NCBI GenBank assembly: GCA_000934665.2
Contig: KZ539113.1
Span: forward strand, 1 to 33,098
Reading direction: 5' to 3'
DNA: 33,098 nt
DNA from: Catajapyx aquilonaris
Taxonomy: Eukaryota
The position numbers and the translations under genes were made by a program. Numbering within the stretch: the first letter of the stretch is position 1; each line of letters opens with the position of its first letter. Shown one piece after another: positions 92-19,100 of the stretch. The notes under the pieces were generated by a model. It saw nothing but the letters and a program-made list of their open reading frames with translations, was not told the DNA's origin and searched no databases.

Positions 92-671
92 GTATGGGGC
101 AAAGTGGAACGGGCAAAGTGGAACGCGTACCGCTATGCTCCGTATATGCAAGAAATGGTCGCACGAGGAATGCACATTGTTTGATGCCGAAATAGATGAT
201 GAGGTTGCATACATTTGTGACTTATGCAAACTGTAGACTAGAGTGTAAGATGAGGGGTCTCACAAGTCAGATCAAAGGCGGCTAAAGTCCCAAAAAACAC
301 TGGTCGTAAAATTATGTGCCAAATAAAGTTTAATCGTGGCAGATAATTGTCCCGTAGGACCTGGATCATGAGTGCGCTGGTAGCTTACAAGCATCCAGGA
401 CTGATTGATCTCATTAAAGCAGAGTCGTTCCGCTTTGCCCCACTACGTGTTCCACTTTACCCCGCAGGTGGGGCAAAGTGAAACGGGTTGGTGGGGGGTT
501 CAAAAATAAGGTTCTAACTCCTACGGTAATTGACTTCAGTAATTCATCACTTCAGGTATTACAGAGGAGACATAAAGGTATTGTGCTGTGCACATTTAAT
601 CCCATCAAGTTTTTCATCTGATTGGGAAAAAAATAAACATCCCTGAACCGTTCCGCTTTGCCCCACCTTCC
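92..671. mobile_element. MITE, Tc1/mariner(pogo)-like, with repeated GGGGCAAAGTGGAAC motif
   Basis: TIR TGGGGCAAAG(T/C)GGAACGG at 95-112 and inverted at 648-665. Internal copies in both orientations at about 426-486. TA follows the right end. Confidence 0.7.
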
Positions 672-5151: not shown

Positions 5152-8100
5152 GTGAGTTGTGCATTATGTATTCCTTTTGTTGCATGAAGCGAAAGAACGT
5201 ATGATGAATTAGGGCCAGTTCATGCTTGTGATGGATTAAAAACTGCGGGCTTCTGCTTGTTGTCGGGGGCAACAATTAATAATGAAGGACGAGAAGAAAC
5301 CTAAGATTTTGATAAATCACAAGCTGTGCATCTGACTATTAAGTGCTGGTGTTGCGTTGATAGTTATTTTGGATACATTTAATGATTGAAAAAAATGTAA
5401 TTTGTCATGATTAACCATAGATCAGCGAGGGTGAGGTTTTCAAATTAGGGTACCTCATAGTGCTACTCACATTTTATTGATAACATTAATGTTGTGGCAG
5501 TGATGAGACCTGGCTTATGTGTGAGCCTGACAGGATCTAGGAGGTAATTTTATGATTCCAGGTACACTAGTGAAACCTAGGATACGGGATACCTAGGGTA
5601 CATACTTCCTTTGTTTTGCTTTCTGCTTTGCCAAACTAGCGATACTGACACTCCTATGATTACGCTGATCTCGGGCTTACCCCATGGTTATTAAATGTAC
5701 TGCAGTGAGGCCTGTGCCAAGGAGCTAGTTAGCACTTTTAAACATGGTTCGTATAAGGTTTGGTGTCCTTGTATGTATCACATCTGAAGGGAAATGGAAG
5801 GGGTTTGGTTGTCAAGGTCTTTGGCCATGGTGAGGTGATGGTGAATTTTAAGTACAGACCTTGCCCATCAAGTTATTTTTATGGATTTAATGCTAGTAGA
5901 GGAAAAAATGAGAGAAGCCAGGAAAAGTAGTTGACAGGATGGGGTTAGGTTGGCCTATTTTTACTATTCCTATGCACCGTAAGATTTGCAGGTGGAATTT
6001 TCAATTGCCTTGATATTGTGTTGGACTAACAGCATTAGATAGGCAATGGTTCTCAAACTAGTGATCTTAAATTCTATCATATGCCAGTCTAGTGAGTTAC
6101 AGCGCTTGCAGGGATGCTTATTTTAAACAAAACATACAGGATTTCACTAGGCATAGACTTTTATGTTACTAAAGTTTAAAAAAATTGAATGTCTTCATGT
6201 GATCCTCAAAAACATTCCTACAAGCTTCTTTGGATTCTGCTCTTTAAGGCCAACTGACCTCAGGCCCTGCTGTGCCTGATCATGGAGTCATGCTCTACAG
6301 GATGCGAAATTGTAGTCTAGGAAAATAGTTGATCTGGGCTGTCACAGGTTCTTCCTTCACTATTAACCTATTGGGGATTTTTGACTAGCCTACGAGGCTG
6401 TAACCTTTATTCTGTATGAACACAAATGACGAAACTTACAGGGTACATGAGGACAATGGACATCTACTTTACTACATAGTTTCCACACCGAAGAACACAC
6501 TTATCCCATCGCCAGACCAGTTTCTTAATCCCTCCCCAATAGAAAGGGGTGCCCTGTTGACAGCACCAGTCACGCACAGCCTTCTTCACCTCATCGTCGC
6601 TTCGGAGGTGCTGACTTGTCATGTCTGCTTTCAGGGCTCTGAATAAGTGATAGTGTGTGAGGGCTAGGTCGGGACTATAGGGTGGGTGAGGAAGAACTTC
6701 CCAGTTGTATCCATTCAGCAAAGCCATGGTGTTCCTCGATGTGTCCGGACAGGCATTGTCGTGGAGAAGGATGACCCCACAGTGAGCAATCCTGGTTGTT
6801 TCCACCTGATGGCCTTATGCAACTTCGCCAGGGTCACTGCATATCTATCCGAATTGATAGTCGTGACTTCCAGCATTGCTCACTGCTGGGGTCATCCATC
6901 TCCACGACAATGCCCGTCCGCACACATTGAGGGACACCATGGGTTTGCTGAATGGATATGACTGGGAGGTTCTTCCTCACCCACCTATAGTCCCGACCTA
7001 GCCCTCACAGACTATCACTTATTCAGAGCCCTGAAAGCAGACATGGCAGGTCAGCATCTCCGAAGCGACGATGAGGTGAAGAAGGCTGAGCGTGACTGGT
7101 GCTGTCAACAGGGCACCCCTTTCTATTGGGAAGGGATTGAGAAACTGGTCTGGTGATGGGATAAGTGCGTTCTTCGGTGTGGAAACTATGTAGTGAAGTA
7201 GATGCCGATTGTCCTCACGTACCCTGTAAGTTTCGTCATTTGTGTTCATACAGAATAATCGTTACAGCCTTGGTTACAGCCTTACTTCTGATCTTACTTT
7301 ACTTACCTTGTCATTTACCGTTTACCGTCATTTGTGTTTATACAGAATAATCGTTACAGCCTTGGTTACAGCCTTACTTCTGATCTTACTTTACTTACCT
7401 TACTTTCTGATCACTCCTCGTACTTTGGCAGCATTCCCAACCAATTGTGCACCTTATTGGCTGTGATACTCACTGACCACCGAACAGTTAAATTACTTTT
7501 CCATGGCAGTGATTACTCCTCCCATAGATGAGGATGAGTTTTACAACATTACCTAGGGTAGACACTGGTAATACAAGTTTACTTCTATTAGTAAAGTAAT
7601 GGTTCAGTGATTTTGCATGTTGGGCTTCGAGAATCAAGCAAGACTCCCTGATTCTGAACATCTGGTCCATTGTAGTAGCAAATGCACTATAAGGGCCGGT
7701 TGCACCAGTCGCGGTATATGGAAAACGGCGGGTTTTCACTCCGGTATACCGCGAGAAGTGTTGCGCCACCTACGGTTGTTCTGAAACGGCCCGTTCTCCC
7801 TCCCATGTACCGCCCGATCCATCTACCCGCCGATCCTGCAGCACAAGTTGCTTATACCGCGGGTTTATGGGTGTTGTCATGGTTGCGGCGTTTTGTGTAC
7901 TGTGTGACACCAGGTGGCAACCCTGCCACGTGGTTGCCATAGATACTAGACGACTAGCCATACTTCCATGACGTCACGGAATGCGTCACGGGTGCTGCGA
8001 TCCAATCAGCGCTCTCCAAAATTTTTGCCCACTTACGTCTCTCATGAGCCAGCGTACTACCGAAAACGCCGTGTTTATCTGAACCGGTGCAACGCTATGG

Positions 8101-11100: not shown

Positions 11101-14100
11101 TCAGCAAATTTGTCTGGAATGGTTCTCAATGTCGATATTCAGTATATTTTAACGTATGATATTGCAAAATTAAATCAGACTAACAGTTGGCTGGTGGCAC
11201 TCGAATTTCGTTCATTTTACGACGATCTTTGTGAAAATCATTTCAGGGACTTCTATGCGAGGAAAATCTTCTCCAACACAATCATAGTGTAGACTAGAGC
11301 ATAAACTTTCAACTTTGTTGCAATTAAACACACGAGTGTGCCATGAAGGGGTGCATTCTCCTCTGAGGGAAGTGCATGATGACCTGGGGGGAGGGGGGGG
11401 GGGAGGATGTCACTGTTACTTTATAGGACTCTTGTAGTCCTGTGGGCTAAGGAAATTCTCATCATATGATAATAACTTGGTATGACTGACATGATTGTTG
11501 TTATTACAAGTTGCAAGAATGGACAATATTTGAAGAAGTATCAACGTAAAATAACATTTCACTCTGTGGCATGCTTGAGGTAGTTGAGAAATGTGTGCAG
11601 ATCATGTTAAGACTTAGGTAATTAGCTTCCTCCACCTTAAATTGATTAATGATAATTTTTCTGGAAAAGATCATGAACATTGATAATTTATATTTTTAAA
11701 TCATCTGAAGGTGAGCTGATCCTGTATTACATCTCATAAAGCGGCATTACGGTATAAGGCGAGGTCGACTGGCATGCCGGTATAACCCGGGGGATGGCCG
11801 GCATGCCGCAATAACCGAGGTAGATTTCCGTAATTTTGACCCTTGTCATTGTTTAATGAAATGCTTCTAGTACCGTCCTGAAATTATGATGAAAATAGGT
11901 GAGTGTACAGGGGTGTGAGAATACGCAAGTTCTGTTGCACAGTGCATAGTGTGTGACCTATCCCATCATCAGCCTGCTGTGAGAGGGGAAACCCTATTCC
12001 AACACAATGGATGGAGGCCAACTATCACAGTCCTTTGCGCTTTGCCTTGGTCAATAGCTCACAGGCCACAGGTCTGACGGTACAAGTTAAAACCTCGTAT
12101 CTTCGAAAATCAAGTAATTGAAGATAAATGCACCATTGCACTCCTCTTTGCAAGCCACACCTTTTGGTACAAAGCCCGTAACTGTAAGAGCAACCCGTGC
12201 AAAGTTATGGCCAATTGAAATCATGCACTTCCATATATGATAATGGAAACAAAAATCATCAAATGCAAATATCTCAAAATGGCAAAAAGCCGAGATACAG
12301 GGTTTTGACTTGGGCCGTCAGAGGTGTAGTTGATTTTACGGGATACTTCAGACGTGCGTCAGACACACTGGTAGGTATTTATGGTAAGAATAACATCAGT
12401 CATGTTTGAAAAATGAAATGGTTCATTTGAAAAAGTGAAAACCTTGCCTTATACCGGCACACCTTGCCCTATACCGGCATGCCGTTAGAGCCACCCGATA
12501 GTGCATTTTTTTAAACTGGTCGACACCGGCATGCTGCTTTATGTGAGGTAATACGGTAATAATATTGAAAGATGTATGTATATTTACATTCTGCCTCTTC
12601 ACTTGATCAGTGTGCATCAAATCAAGTTTTAAAAGGTCAGACGAATTTTACCTTTTTATTGCCAGTGTTACTTTCTTAGTAATAAGAATATCAGTCAGAA
12701 TTGTCTATATATTGGCTGCTACCAGAATTAGCAAATGGGAACTCATAAATGTGTTACAGTAAAAGGTTGCATTAATTTTTTTTAATGTATCGCAGGGCAA
12801 GTCTCTGGAGCAGCAGCAGAAAACCCTACCACAGAAACATGGCATGCAAAGCCTGGGTAAGGTGCCGTCGGCGCGGCGACCTCCTGCCAACCTTCCTAGC
12901 CTGAAATCGGAGCATTGCGGGAACGACCCCACTATCAGTTTGGTCCCAAGTGGAGGAACAGGATGGGGCAGCAAGCCAGAATCTGCCACCCCTTCGCCAG
13001 CCCAGCAGCCGACACCACCGCAGCAGCCACAACCAGGGCCAACCTCAAGCACCAATACTGCCGCCCCACAACAGCAACCTCCGGCAGCCGCCCCACAGCA
13101 GACCCCAGTGGTACCAGTGCAACCAGCACCGTCTACCACACCTCCAACCACTCAACCACCAGCACCGCCACAACCGCAGCCTCAGCTCTCCCCGGCTGGC
13201 ATCACTGTGGCCGCACCGCCAGTGGCACCAGCCTACAAGCCTCCTCCATTGATACTCCCTTCGCCAGCACCACTGCCAGACAAGTCATGGAGCAGTATAA
13301 CATCGGCGCCGACCGATCCAGCAGCACCCAGCTTTCTGGCACATCAGTCCCCGCTCTTCCAGCAGGAGTTTCCCAGCCTGGCTCAAGGTGGTGGCGAGGG
13401 TGGCGCCGGCCCTGCATCTGGAGGCGCCGCCGCTGGAAGTGGGGCAGTTTCAAAGGGCGGAGAGACCCAGTATGGACCGGGTCCAAGCTTGAGGCCTCAG
13501 ACAGAAGGGAGCTGGATCCAGGGGGGAAGCCGTGGTGCCATACCAAACATCGATGGCACCAATCGCAACTTGGTACTTCCGCCTCACCCTTCTTCGGGAG
13601 CGGCCCAGGGAGGCCAGGCACAGCAACAGTCGGCAGGACCGATGCACATGCCACCTCAGTTTCGTGGTATGATGCCACCGTACATGTACCGGGGTAACTT
13701 CCCTCCACCAGGTTCTGCTGCTGGTGGCGGCTTTCCAAATGCCCCTAATCCAGCTGCTGCTGCTGCAGCTGCAGCTTATCAAAATCAGCTGCAGATGAGG
13801 CCCCCACAGCAACGGTACCCATATCCTGACAGCCGATTGAGGCCGAAGGCCGGAGAGGATGAGGTGTTCTCAAGACCTATTATCAAGGAGGAGGACCTGA
13901 ACCGGCTTGATGATATTGTCAGAGATGATGGATGGGCTGCTACGCATGATGAGATTGACTACAAGTTAGTAAAAACCCTTCTAAATTCTAGAAAGAGCAG
14001 TAGACAAGTTGTGCGGTATTTGCCACAAGGCATTACTCTTTATTTATCTATCTATTTATTAATTTGTTCATTTATACTGTTGGATCTGTTTCTGTTGGTC

Positions 14101-16091
14101 GTAGAAATGCTTGACAATGTGTTTGTGCATTTTAACTCTCAGGGCGCCGGTTGACATACGGGTGAGAACAAGACTTTGCGAATTTTTTTACGGAACTTCG
14201 ACAATGGGTAAATGAATGGCGGTTTTCACCCTCTTCACAAGCACTATAAGTAGAACTTACATGAAAAATGTCAGTGTGTGGGAATGTCCAGTGGCCATGA
14301 TGTGGGGTCATTTGGGTGGCCACTCAGGGAGCAGCGTGAGAACAATTTCAAGAATTAATTTTAAATATTAGCTGTAACCTACATGGTTTTTATCTACATG
14401 AGTCGTGGCGTTTCAAAAATGGCTATCTTCAACTGGCTCAACTTTTCAGTTGTCACTTTTGATCCTACCATGCTCCCGAAGATAGCTACCTTCTGAAATT
14501 ACGACGATTTTCGCAGCAGCAGAATGATGTGAAGATGGTCATTTTTTGTTACTGCTGCTTCAGGAACTAATGTAGTTCCATTCTAGCCAGCAGATGGGGT
14601 GGACATCTCAAAATTCTCATTTTGAAGATAGCCATGTTTGAAACGCCACGACTCATATGTTAATAATACATATACCCGAACAGATTTTGTAAAATTTTTA
14701 CGCTTATGATAATCCATTACGTCACAATTAATTGTTTTTTGCGTCTAATTACCGTGGCCTCATTTTGGTTTGTTCTGCGCAGCCATTGGCTCTCCAGCTC
14801 TCGCACGCGATTGGCTCTTGAATATTTTCGCCTGCGCTAAGCAATCTGCGTATTTATTTACCCTGATGAATTTTAATTATTTTTATGGGTTCTAACTACC
14901 CTATCTTGATGAAATATGTTTTATGTGAAAAAGGAGATGTCAAACTAATTAAAAAAAAAAAATAAACTCAGGCAGCCAATGGCTGGTCCGCACGCTCACC
15001 AAAGATGTTGCTTACATGATGGATTCTGAGAGTTCCGCAGCGCGTTAGACGGCATTCATATTAACTAGAAGAGGCAAAGGCATCCTAGATGGAAAGACCT
15101 GGCCATTTCCTTTCTGACTCACTAGATGTCATGGGAATGGGCCTACGGAGAGTGTAGAAAAAAATTCTTAAAGTAGTCCCCACCCTTCCCGCTGGTCTTC
15201 GCTGGAAAATGGCGGCGCCGTAAGAGTTAAAGGAGCATTTTTACAATGAGTGAATTTGGCTTTTGCAGCAAGAAGCTAGCATTCAGTGATGATGAGGATG
15301 GAGAGGAGAAGGGAGATAAGTCTGACCAGCAGCGAAAGGAGCGTCACCACCATCGAGAGGACATACATGATGTGCAGGAAGGTGGACGCATGCCTCCATC
15401 AGCTTGGCAACAGCAGCAAAATCGCCAAGTCATGGCAATGAACTACCGAGGTCCTCAGCAGCCTCCACATGGGGGACCTGGGGCTCCACCACCAGGACCC
15501 ATGGGGTTCCATCCACCACCTATGCGAATGCCTACACCTCATCAGCAGGTGAGTTAATTTTATGCATGTGGTGATTATCCATAGGGAATGGCAATGATGT
15601 CCTTTTACCGTGTTTCACCTGATTCAGTGTGATTACAACATTTCAATCTGAGCTGCTCCCATGGTAATTATACTGTATATTACTAAAGCAAGTTGGTGGG
15701 CGTCCGACTGCTAATCGGGAGGTCCTGGGTTCAAGTCCCAGGGCCGTCGATCGTGACCGTGGTTTTCTGTGGTTTCCTGTGGTTTCCCACGGTCCTCCCA
15801 GGAAAATTCTGGGGTCTTTTCTGTAAATAATAGGCCACAGCCGCCCCCTTCCTTTCCTATCCTTGACCCATCCATGGGGATGTGCGGTGTTGGTGGGGGT
15901 TGTCTTGCAACCTGACCCCCTGGGGGACTGCACACAACCCCCAACATAAAGACAACGCACTTGCACCAGTGTCCCCTCCTCACAAATCCCTATCCAGATC
16001 TCTGCACCTGAGAGAAAAATGCAAAAGAAAATTCGTCAGAAAAAAATGGCACCCTCCTAAGGGAGCCAATGGCTCCAGCACGGGGTTGCAA

Positions 16092-16143
<52 letters not shown>

Positions 16144-19100
16144 TACTGTATATTTTCTTCTCTGTTGCCAGTTTTTTATCTAATTCATCTTGTATGTAAT
16201 CAGTTACATTTAAAAATAACTACACTAGATGAAAAGCAACTGTAAGATTCATGAAGTTTTAGCTAAAAACAGAATAGCACTGAAGGTAGCTTCAGTGTGT
16301 TCAGTTGTCTTGAAGCATGATTACATGGTGGCAGGTAGTTAAAATTCTCATGAAGCGGTGAACTTGTGCTCATTTTGTGCATTGCTTTGCAAACCAGATG
16401 TACATGAGTGGTGGGCGCATGATAGATGAAGAGGAGGTTGTGCGTGAGAGGGAGAGGCGCAGGCAACAGCAGAGTGATGAGGCAGCCATGGTGGTTATGC
16501 GACAGAGGCAGGAGGAGGAAAAGAGAAGGCTGGAACAGCAGGGCAAGCAGATGTATGGTGGTGGGGGTGGGAGTAACCGCATGGTGGAGGAGGATGACGT
16601 GTGGCGTGAGCGTCGCAGGCAGCAGAATGAAGAGGTAGCCCTTGCAGTGGAAAGGGCAAGGCAGAGGCGGGAAGAGGAAGAGAAGAGGTTTGAGCAGAGC
16701 AAACAGGAAGCTGCTAAGAAGCTACAGAAGCTGGAGGAGAAGCTTGGAGTCAAGGAGCCTGCCCCCAGTGCAGTGGCAGCAGCAGCTCAGGTTCAACCCA
16801 ACCCACCAACCGCTACGGAGAGCAAGGAAGCCTCCCCAGAGGAATCTGACAAGGACAAGGAAAAGGAGAGGCCAACTGAGAGGGAGGCTGGATCCAGGAA
16901 CAACAGTGAGAGCAGTGACAAGGCTACCAGGGACTTCCGGGCCAGTTTCCAGGTAAATACAAACTCAGGCTCATTGTTTAGCAGGTACTTCCTACATAAA
17001 ATGGCAGCAATGATGTCTCCTTATACCGTGTTTCACCTGAACAAACTTGATTAAAAGCTTGTTTCTGAGCTGCCTGGAACCTTGAAATTCATTACTATCA
17101 TTAACAAAATTCTGCATTGAAAAAAGGGGTAGTAATAATAGTATTTATTGACCATTGCACCCTAGATAATTTGGAGGACTTGGGAGAAAAACGTGACAAT
17201 CACCAGTGAAAAATACAAAAAGTTCTCTGCCTGATTTCCCCCCCGTGGAAACAAATGAAGCACAGCGGGTGTCCTTCTGTGTGTAGGTGTGGAGTACCTT
17301 CATGCGTATTCTCGTATATTTTCCTGCCTGTAGAGAGCACCAGTCACTAGCAGTCAGCCTGTGAGCCCACTGCCGCATGCCAGTTAACATGTTTTACACC
17401 CAAGATGTTCAATTCGTGCCAAAGCTATACTACTGATGGAGCTGCAAGTCTTGTAGGACATTCTGGACACCTCAAACAGTGACCCTGACTTCCTGAACAC
17501 TGTGATGACTGGAGACAACTTGTGGGTCGTATGCTGTTCAAATTATGTCATTTTCGTGGGAAATGAAAATTCACCGGGTGCCGATTACCCTTGGTCACTC
17601 ACAAGCTGACCGCCAGCGACCGACTCTCTCTGTAGGTGGGGAAATATTCACGAATCCTCATGAAGGTACTCCACACCTACACACAGAAAGACACCCCTAC
17701 CCCTGTGCTTCATTTGTTTCCGCGGGGGGGAAATCAGGCCGAGAACTTCTTGCGTTTTTCACTGGCAATTATCATGTTTTTCTCCCGAGCCCTTCATTTA
17801 ATACCATGTTAGATAGAGGGGGTAGTTAATTTCCCATTGGGTGTCACATGCCGGACTTTCTGCTGGATTAGATTGTAAAACGTGGACGTTTCATCAAGTC
17901 CCAAGTACCATGACCAAGGAAGGGGTTCTGGGAGGGGCGATGTAGGTGCAAGTGAAATGTCTGAGACATTCATTGGGGCTAGACGTTACATACCATTATA
18001 GCATATCCACCTGGTTATAGTGGTGTTGGAACAGTTTGAATCAGTGGTAAATTAGCTTTTCATTTGCATCTTTTTCTAATATGGTCTGGTCATGTCAATA
18101 TGTACATTTTAAAAACTCACTGTTCCAGGCGGATCGCAATTTCCCACGTGAAAAAGACCGGGAGAGGGAACGTGATCGTGAGCAGCGAGGGGAGAGGGAT
18201 CGTGAAAGGGAGTGGGAAAGGGAAAGGGAAAGGGCAGGGGAGCGTGGTGGTGAGAGGGACCGAGAGAGGGAGAGAGGAAGTGACAGCAGGACTGGAGAGC
18301 GGTTTGAGCAACCACAGTTCTCTCGCCAGTTCCAGAGCAATCTTCCCCCACGCTTCCAGAAACAAGCAGAAATTATGCAGCAGCAGAGGCAGCAGATGTT
18401 TGTGAAGCCCTCATCATCATCAAGTCAGCAAGGCAGTAGCACCACTGCAGCTTCCCCAGGTGGAGGATCTGCTTCAGGTGCCGGGACTTATGATCAGAGG
18501 TGGCTTCCCATGCACGGACCTCCATTTGTCACACAGATGCAAGGTTAGTATTTACACTATACTTGATTTTAACGAGAATAAGTGATCATTTTTAAATGCA
18601 GTGATTGGAGAATTCGTTGTATTTTCAGTCATTTACCAATTTCGCATCCTCTTTTCCGAATGTTATGGGTGCATAACAAAAAAAATGTAGCTGTAGCAGT
18701 ATGTTAAGCAACTTTTCAATTTCAAAAAACTACTGTAGTACCCAAGATTTTGCCATTTTATTAAGGGCATTAAGCTATCCTTCCTTATTCACGGCATGCA
18801 CAACTTTTGTGTTGGTCGTCTGTGACTTGGGATGCATTTACAGGACTGCCTTTGAAAGGAGTGGCGGCCCCTACAGGCAAACGTGGACGCTCTGACAGTG
18901 ATGCGTCAGGCTCTTTGGAGCCCCCTGCAGATGACAAGGATCCCCAGAAGAGACCTCAGCAGAAAGACGGGAGGCATGATGATAGGGACAGAGAAGACTT
19001 CCATGGTGGCAGCGCTCCTGAAGATAGGTTTTGGGCTACAGGAGGCAGGGATGGAAGAGGGAGTGCTTCCTCCTCCTCGGTGGCTTCTGGATACCAGGAT

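Follow-up and report, generated by a model that had tools for sequence, protein, structure and literature searches.

Two short units in consecutive introns of a PRRC2-like gene of Catajapyx aquilonaris are very probably intron-encoded box C/D snoRNAs of the SNORD126/snoRNA:CD43 (Me28S-A771) family, judging from their boxes, guide and position. They lie in a stretch of 33,098 nt (contig KZ539113.1), referred to here as the window. An earlier note on this DNA had proposed an unannotated arthropod family, a proposal that does not hold: SNORD126 is the closest family in Rfam and agrees in guide register and C' box, and an equivalent from the fruit fly, CD43, has been published. Fruit fly, frog and human are already known to have the same guide and methylated site, which makes the find an ordinary one, and no new modification site, guide family or mechanism is revealed.

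The host gene is of the PRRC2/nocte type, as previously proposed, and is recognised by a BAT2_N domain in an upstream exon. The parts of the gene that frame the two units are:

12850..14082, + strand: upstream host exon with the BAT2 N-terminal domain, PRRC2/nocte type (Pfam PF07001, E 1.2e-20, 75.2 bits)
15549..16397, + strand: host intron 1, 849 nt, GT..AG (a transcript-like contig of run X1 joins 15548 to 16398)
16398..16952, + strand: host exon between the two unit-bearing introns, 555 nt, 185 codons (open frame, contig joint, contig end at 16952)
16953..18128, + strand: host intron 2, 1176 nt (contig ends at 16952; GT at 16953, AG at 18127-18128)

The intron 1 joint is supported by run X1, whose contigs do not span either unit, a gap that speaks neither for nor against expression of the units. 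The 555-nt exon is in phase 0 at both ends, and the host reading frame resumes at 18129, after intron 2. Since the introns begin at 15549 and 16953, the units start 40 and 50 nt past the donors, within the 40-60 nt given earlier, and leave 742 nt (copy 1) and 1054 nt (copy 2) to the acceptors. Both are on the sense strand of the gene. Intron 1 also contains a tRNA-derived high-copy element and an (AAT)n run. Elsewhere in the window, a SNORA57-like match at 5734-5869 was not counted as a snoRNA because its alignment lacks a 3'-terminal ACA box. As for snoRNAs in related hosts, PRRC2A and SNORA38 are mentioned together in the literature; a literature search found no paper on SNORD62 together with PRRC2B, and the literature on nocte together with snoRNA held nothing relevant by title.

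Read directly from the sequence, the units consist of the following elements:

15589..15655, + strand: copy 1, candidate snoRNA, 67 nt
15589-15592 with 15652-15655, + strand: copy 1 terminal stem, 4 bp, two G-U
15594-15600, + strand: copy 1 C box, ATGATGT
15608-15618, + strand: copy 1 D' guide, CCGTGTTTCAC, 11 nt
15619-15622, + strand: copy 1 D' box, CTGA
15629-15635, + strand: copy 1 C' box, GTGATTA
15636-15647, + strand: copy 1 pre-D segment
15648-15651, + strand: copy 1 D box, CTGA
17003..17074, + strand: copy 2, candidate snoRNA, 72 nt
17003-17008 with 17069-17074, + strand: copy 2 terminal stem, 6 bp
17010-17016, + strand: copy 2 C box, identical to that of copy 1 (7/7)
17026-17036, + strand: copy 2 D' guide, 11 nt, identical to that of copy 1
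17037-17040, + strand: copy 2 D' box, CTGA
17047-17053, + strand: copy 2 C' box, TTGATTA
17054-17064, + strand: copy 2 pre-D segment
17065-17068, + strand: copy 2 D box, CTGA

The C, D', C' and D boxes claimed for both units are thus present. A C box (consensus RUGAUGA, here AUGAUGU) and a D box (CUGA) are closed by a terminal stem in both copies, and an internal D' box (CUGA) and C' box ((G/U)UGAUUA) lie between them. The seventh base of the C box is U, not A, in both. The claim of a terminal stem in each unit stands for copy 2 but only weakly for copy 1, whose 5' stem arm is three bases shorter. Minimum-free-energy folding did not set either unit apart from shuffled sequences (z 0.61 and -1.59); a weak signal of this kind is usual for C/D snoRNAs.

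Comparison of the two copies shows where they have been kept alike. Identity is complete in the C box, guide (11/11), D' box (4/4) and D box (4/4) and nearly so in the C' box (6/7), but falls to 1/6 in the D'-C' spacer and to 5 identical positions in the pre-D segments of 12 and 11 nt. This bears out the earlier description of conservation only in the boxes and guide-CTGA, and such a pattern fits selection on both copies. In the 100 nt beyond the units, 57 positions are identical between copies, which is the chance level (shuffles: mean 52.4, maximum 60). The guide-plus-D' 15-mer, CCGTGTTTCACCTGA, has exactly two occurrences in the window, where 0.05 would be expected. A single conserved D' guide in a box C/D snoRNA-type unit, as first suggested, is supported. 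A second guide before box D was considered and rejected, since the copies agree so poorly there and their relatives have no conserved column at that place; the pre-D segment probably guides nothing. Retroposition of one copy was likewise rejected, as neither unit is followed by an A-run or a repeated flank.

In principle the units need not be snoRNAs: the motifs could have come together twice by chance, belong to a dispersed repeat, or serve as a splicing element of the intron. They are known from sequence alone, and the high-copy tRNA-derived element lies only 30 nt downstream of copy 1. However, a 15-mer count of at least two was reached in 0 of 100 shuffles, homology ends at the unit ends, and there is no third copy in the 33-kb window. 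In run X1 the units have zero depth, while the neighbouring repeat reaches depths in the thousands, so the units are not part of that repeat. In addition, 33 distinct relatives on other contigs share the four-box architecture and the stem register. Taken together, these observations leave a non-snoRNA origin most improbable.

The relatives come from a pattern scan of metagenomes, which gave 92 matches in 91 loci. Two features that were not part of the search pattern recur among them: TGATTA stands 3-22 nt after D' in 47 of the 92 matches, and in 46 of these 47 a D box follows 15-45 nt after D'. When a model was built from the 33 relatives only, with the window copies left out, copy 2 scored 66.3 bits and copy 1 55.8 against 13.6 for the next match, although 25 pattern bases are common to the relatives and the window owing to the way the search was set up. 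Aligned in 35 rows, the terminal stem shows 91% pairing (53.9% when shuffled, 20-42% when slid) and all 6 stem pairs vary on both sides; these figures are biased, as only rows with a stem of at least 4 bp had been admitted. An SF3B3 exon adjoins the loci of 6 of 32 relatives, with about 60-90 nt from the snoRNA-like unit to the next exon, as against 742 and 1054 nt in the window, and two further relatives are hosted by a poly(A)-binding protein gene and a CFAP96-like gene. A tblastn search with five exon peptides of the window against the 91 loci, with flanks of 300-400 nt, found no PRRC2-like exon (best E 0.35).

Known families were searched with Rfam, a check that the earlier note had recommended. 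At the gathering threshold there were 0 matches in the window. Below it, the top match of copy 2 is SNORD126 (RF01168), at 34.1 bits against a gathering score of 55 (E 8.7e-5 in a 1.7-kb search, 0.0017 in the whole window). Copy 1 has no significant Rfam match (best E 2.2) and reaches 17.5 bits with SNORD126 (E 3.1), also against 55. In the cmscan alignment, guide, gap of one nucleotide and CUGA of the window occupy the same SNORD126 model columns as those of the consensus. The relatives behave similarly: 12 units in 11 of 20 loci match SNORD126 at 32.5-44.9 bits. Outside vertebrates, the Rfam gathering threshold misses this SNORD126-like family, as it does both copies in the window and each of the 12 relatives that score, so the annotation of this genome probably lacks these genes. 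It is for annotation that the find is of practical use.

The guide also indicates a target. Its positions 2-11 form 10 contiguous pairs with a conserved 28S segment, as printed in the sense-strand 28S primer 28sa, which is used across arthropods, fungi and nematodes; pairing with the species' own 28S is predicted from this conserved segment. The duplex is limited to 10 bp by an A just 5' of the guide core in both copies, where 31 of 33 relatives have T. In box C/D snoRNAs, the nucleotide paired with the fifth guide position upstream of the D or D' box is methylated. Counted from the start of each D' box (15619 and 17037), that guide position is:

15614, + strand: copy 1 guide nucleotide, fifth upstream of D'
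17032, + strand: copy 2 guide nucleotide, fifth upstream of D'

By the box-plus-five rule, the predicted target is the second A of 28S GAAAC (equivalent to human A1323), three nucleotides upstream of the U18-type site and directly 3' of the m1A site. The earlier note had arrived at the same A and had set it apart from the U18 register, a distinction that the spacing of guide and box upholds. Could the units nevertheless be U18/SNORD18-type guides for the adenosine three nucleotides 3' (fly Am799)? There is overlap between the guide and the segment targeted by U18, SNORD18 gives weak matches (copy 2, 17.7 bits; relative L061, 33.4 bits), and Am799 is a second, low-scoring (12.35) snoscan prediction for fly CD43 (PMC11014333). 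Yet CAC between TTT and the D' box puts the fifth position on the second A, and the U18 register would require a D' box three nucleotides earlier. SNORD126 also outscores SNORD18 in both copies, and fly Am799 has guides of its own, CD25a/b (PMC11014333). A U18-type function can thus be given very little credence.

A more serious question is whether both copies work. It is possible, though we consider it rather unlikely, that copy 2 alone is functional and that copy 1 is a paralogue in decay, or one that is processed poorly, from which no RNA accumulates. The three bases missing from its 5' stem arm, which leave the 4-bp stem with two G-U pairs, would fit such decay, as would its lower scores with both SNORD126 and the relatives-only model, and a scan demanding a stem of at least 5 bp picks up copy 2 only. 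Short stems are nevertheless common, with 4 bp or fewer in 16 of the 39 distinct relatives that have a TGATTA C' box and a D box. Moreover, copy 1 keeps its four boxes and 11-nt guide amid a diverged spacer and pre-D segment, which is unexpected for a neutral pseudogene of its age. Copy 2 is the better-formed gene of the two, and copy 1 is probably active but weaker.

If both units are SNORD126/CD43-type snoRNAs, their expression, particle assembly and methylating activity would be expected to follow the usual route. Splicing of the host pre-mRNA would release the two introns, Snu13, Nop56, Nop58 and fibrillarin would assemble on the C/D and C'/D' motifs, and exonucleases would trim the debranched intron to a particle of about 70 nt. 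The D' guide could then pair over 10 bp with the GAAAC-containing conserved segment of 28S, and fibrillarin would 2'-O-methylate the nucleotide facing guide position five, the equivalent of yeast 646, fly 796 and human 1323. An additional role is conceivable, as the units are unusually near the 5' splice sites, far from the acceptors, and bracket one in-frame exon. The snoRNAs might tune inclusion of this 555-nt coiled-coil exon, through assembly of both particles or through pairing with nearby intron sequence, but we regard this as a long shot. If true, modification of the ribosome would be linked with which isoform of a translation regulator of the PRRC2 type is made.

Counterparts of these units have been described in several organisms. 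In human, 28S-Am1323 (old Am1310) is assigned to SNORD126 (PMC9941101), a snoRNA that was originally listed as an orphan with restricted expression (PMC1636440). SNORD126 shares with the window copies the 10-nt guide core, the one-nucleotide gap to the D' box, the UGAUUA C' box, a similar length, a similar GC-rich stem beside the boxes and the same predicted target nucleotide. It differs in that its Rfam consensus pairing extends 5' of the core, whereas the window duplex is 10 bp, in its human host (CCNB1IP1, not a PRRC2-like gene), and in the C box, which ends in U in the window.

In the fruit fly, 28S-Am796 is a high-confidence site with CD43 as its guide, equated with human 1323 and yeast 646 (PMC11014333). 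It is experimentally methylated, with a MethScore of about 0.97 that is lower after Fibrillarin knock-down (PMC11014333). According to Table S4 of that paper, its guide FBgn0086067 is snoRNA:CD43, or Me28S-A771 (Huang 2005), and the site, methylated in all four organisms, corresponds to human 1323/1310 (SNORD126), Xenopus 960 and Dictyostelium 841. Like the window copies, CD43 guides the homologous site, is intronic in a protein-coding gene and is of similar size (73 nt), and its published C box, AUGAUGC, is without the final A. Its host is Sf3b3, whereas the window has two copies in a PRRC2-like gene. Strict syntenic orthology with CD43 (an Sf3b3 intron) is not seen, as the window host carries BAT2_N, and there is no SF3B3-like frame among the window ORFs of at least 90 aa.

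For other species, single rows of Table S4 (PMC11014333) are the source. Xenopus laevis 28S-Am960 is listed with '126 (2 different copies)', which resembles the window in the homologous site and in having two differing copies, and Dictyostelium 26S-Am841 is listed with guide CD12, which shares the homologous site. U18/SNORD18 (fly CD25a/b) acts on the same conserved 28S segment with an overlapping guide, in a register shifted by three nucleotides, and yeast and plants, too, carry the methylation at its site, Am799 (its code is DmHYAXDd, that of Am796 DmHXDd; PMC11014333).

Set against these systems, only the PRRC2-like host gene and the paired copies in adjacent introns are new here. The hosts now include SF3B3 (fly and six relatives), a poly(A)-binding protein gene, a CFAP96-like gene, CCNB1IP1 (human) and the PRRC2-like gene of the window, which neatly illustrates how an ancient guide RNA keeps its target while it switches its host gene.

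Two consecutive introns of the host gene each contain a box C/D snoRNA-type unit. At least one of these, and probably both, very likely works as a guide that directs 2'-O-methylation to the second A of GAAAC in 28S rRNA, judging from sequence features. The units and their surroundings are arranged as follows.

15549-16397, plus strand: host intron 1, defined by a contig joint with GT..AG
15589-15655, plus strand: copy 1, with C box ATGATGT, 7-nt spacer, CCGTGTTTCAC, D' box CTGA, 6-nt spacer, C' box GTGATTA, 12 nt, D box CTGA and a short closing stem
16398-16952, plus strand: exon between both introns, 555 nt, phase 0 at either end
16953-18128, plus strand: host intron 2, defined by a contig end at 16952, an acceptor at 18127-18128 and a frame resuming at 18129
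17003-17074, plus strand: copy 2, with the part order of copy 1, a first spacer of 9 nt, C' box TTGATTA and 11 nt before the D box

A transcript-like contig from one public sequencing run (X1) joins 15548 to 16398 over GT..AG, and a second X1 contig stops at 16952. The upstream exon encodes a BAT2_N domain (Pfam, E 1.2e-20), which identifies the host as a PRRC2/nocte-type gene. Since the 555-nt exon has phase 0 on both sides, its skipping would preserve the reading frame. Both units lie on the sense strand, starting 40 nt (copy 1) and 50 nt (copy 2) past the donors and ending 742 nt and 1054 nt, respectively, upstream of the acceptors. Intron 1 also holds a tRNA-derived, SINE-like element directly after copy 1 (15687-15860; Rfam tRNA 26.8 bits, gathering score 29), where X1 contig depths in the thousands and many loose ends indicate a high-copy repeat, and a long (AAT)n microsatellite (16084-16150) that was set aside as a repeat when X1 was mapped.

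The guide and D' box form a 15-mer that occurs twice in the 33 kb, against 0.05 expected occurrences, and none of 100 shuffles contained two or more. Identity between the copies is kept in the C box (7/7), guide (11/11), D' (4/4), C' (6/7) and D (4/4). It drops to 1/6 in the D'-C' spacer and to 5 of 12/11 in the segment before box D. Beyond the units, likeness of the introns is at shuffle level (57/100 identical; shuffles mean 52.4, maximum 60). The terminal stem has 6 bp in copy 2 and 4 bp in copy 1, two of them G-U, and copy 1 lacks three bases of the 5' stem arm. Copy 1 may be inactive, although this is the less likely case.

Guide positions 2-11, counted from D', pair with the ten bases TGAAACACGG of a conserved 28S segment that corresponds to the sense-strand 28S primer 28sa, and position 5 partners the second A of GAAAC. 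The duplex spans 10 bp, positions 1 and 12 being unpaired, against a possible 11 bp in 31 of 33 relatives. In a U18 (SNORD18) register, the same units would address a different nucleotide, but the box would have to stand three nucleotides earlier, making this very improbable. Direct reading of the sequence thus agrees with the earlier note on both the layout (boxes, guide and closing stem) and the target, the second A of GAAAC rather than the U18 site. The weak stem of copy 1, the 10-bp duplex and the remoteness of the units from their acceptors count against a working guide. The sequences show the layout of the units and their likeness to the family, and we infer that the units are expressed, assembled into particles and used for methylation.

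Relatives were sought in metagenome contigs with a pattern in which a C box, a gap and the guide core are followed by one base and CTGA, giving 92 matches in 91 loci, some of which are bacterial coding sequence. TGATTA lies 3-22 nt past D' in 47 of the 92 matches and CTGA 15-45 nt past it in 68, and in 41 a D box is accompanied by a stem of at least 4 bp. Leaving out identical duplicates and matches without D box and stem, 33 distinct units were aligned with the window copies. In this alignment, stem pairing in the shared register was 91%, against 53.9% when shuffled and 20-42% when slid, a statistic that is not unbiased because rows were pre-chosen for having a stem; both-side changes occur at 6/6 stem pairs. 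The aligned relatives show that a common stem register exists, with many stem sequences. When distinct units were picked by C' and D boxes alone, 23 of 39 had a stem of at least 5 bp (maximum 15 in 2000 permutations). A covariance model made without the window copies, from just the 33 relatives, scored copy 2 at 66.3 bits and copy 1 at 55.8, with nothing else in the window above 13.6, 25 bases being common to relatives and window copies by construction of the scan. Including the window copies in the model likewise revealed no third copy in the window. That the units are something other than snoRNAs is very improbable. The same snoRNA type occurs twice on each of two relatives' contigs, L031 (401-432 and 977-1008, ~576 nt apart) and L047 (222-250 and 807-835, ~585 nt apart), which shows that this guide has been duplicated locally in other organisms too.

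Rfam gave no match in the window at gathering thresholds. At relaxed thresholds, the top match of copy 2 is SNORD126 (34.1 bits, gathering 55; E 8.7e-5 in a 1.7-kb search, 0.0017 over the whole window), and its guide core, the one base that separates this core from CUGA, and its C' box UGAUUA sit on SNORD126 consensus columns of the Rfam alignment. Copy 1 reaches 17.5 bits for SNORD126 and has no significant Rfam match at these thresholds. Among 20 relatives' loci (E <=0.01), SNORD126 was matched by 12 units in 11 loci (32.5-44.9 bits, all below 55), L061 matched SNORD18 and 8 loci had no match. A weak SNORA57-like H/ACA match at 5734-5869 (plus strand; 25.1 bits, gathering 40) is probably no snoRNA, as its 3' end has no ACA box in the alignment.

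SNORD126 is the guide assigned to human 28S-Am1323, formerly numbered Am1310 (PMC9941101). In the fly, MethScores for 28S-Am796 (formerly 771) are 0.97-0.98, falling to 0.82-0.89 under Fibrillarin knock-down, and the site is also Nanopore-supported; its guide is FBgn0086067, i.e. snoRNA:CD43 or snoRNA:Me28S-A771 (Huang 2005), of 73 nt, with C box AUGAUGC and hosted in Sf3b3 (PMC11014333). Table S4 of that study aligns Am796 with human 1323/1310 (SNORD126), Xenopus 960 ("126, 2 different copies"), Dictyostelium 841 and yeast 646, the last listed as unmethylated (PMC11014333). Yeast 646 adjoins m1A645 and human 1323 adjoins m1A1322. Both the predicted site and its guide family have been described before, in an arthropod as well as in vertebrates. 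The earlier note's observation and D' guide register stand, but not its proposal of an unannotated arthropod family, as SNORD126 and fly CD43 were already tied to the homologous site. There is no new site, family or mechanism here; the value of the pair lies in annotation and in illustrating host switching.

Human SNORD126, first listed as an orphan (PMC1636440), lies in CCNB1IP1. To survey the hosts of the relatives, 106 open frames taken from 32 loci were searched with Pfam, and PDB sequence searches were added. SF3B3-type propeller or CPSF_A segments adjoin the unit in six loci (L011, L034, L037, L049, L061 and L084), three of which were confirmed as SF3B3 by PDB sequences (E 1e-46, 4.5e-35 and 5.5e-29). 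The units occupy no fewer than two distinct SF3B3 introns. The L008 unit adjoins a CFAP96-like frame and that of L048 a poly(A)-binding protein exon. This L048 unit (363-436, minus strand), directly downstream of the exon and so in another translation-factor host, is the relative closest to the window copies around the guide, with A preceding the guide core, C preceding D' and also CTTGATTAAA. No PRRC2-like exon was found beside the relatives within their short flanks. The spread of hosts among relatives, fly and human shows that the family is old and that its hosts have changed.

Particular to the window are the PRRC2-like host and the two copies in adjacent introns. In the SF3B3-hosted L011, L034, L037, L049 and L084, the unit ends ~60-90 nt upstream of the open frame of the exon that follows, as is usual for intronic C/D snoRNAs, whereas the window copies sit by the donor.
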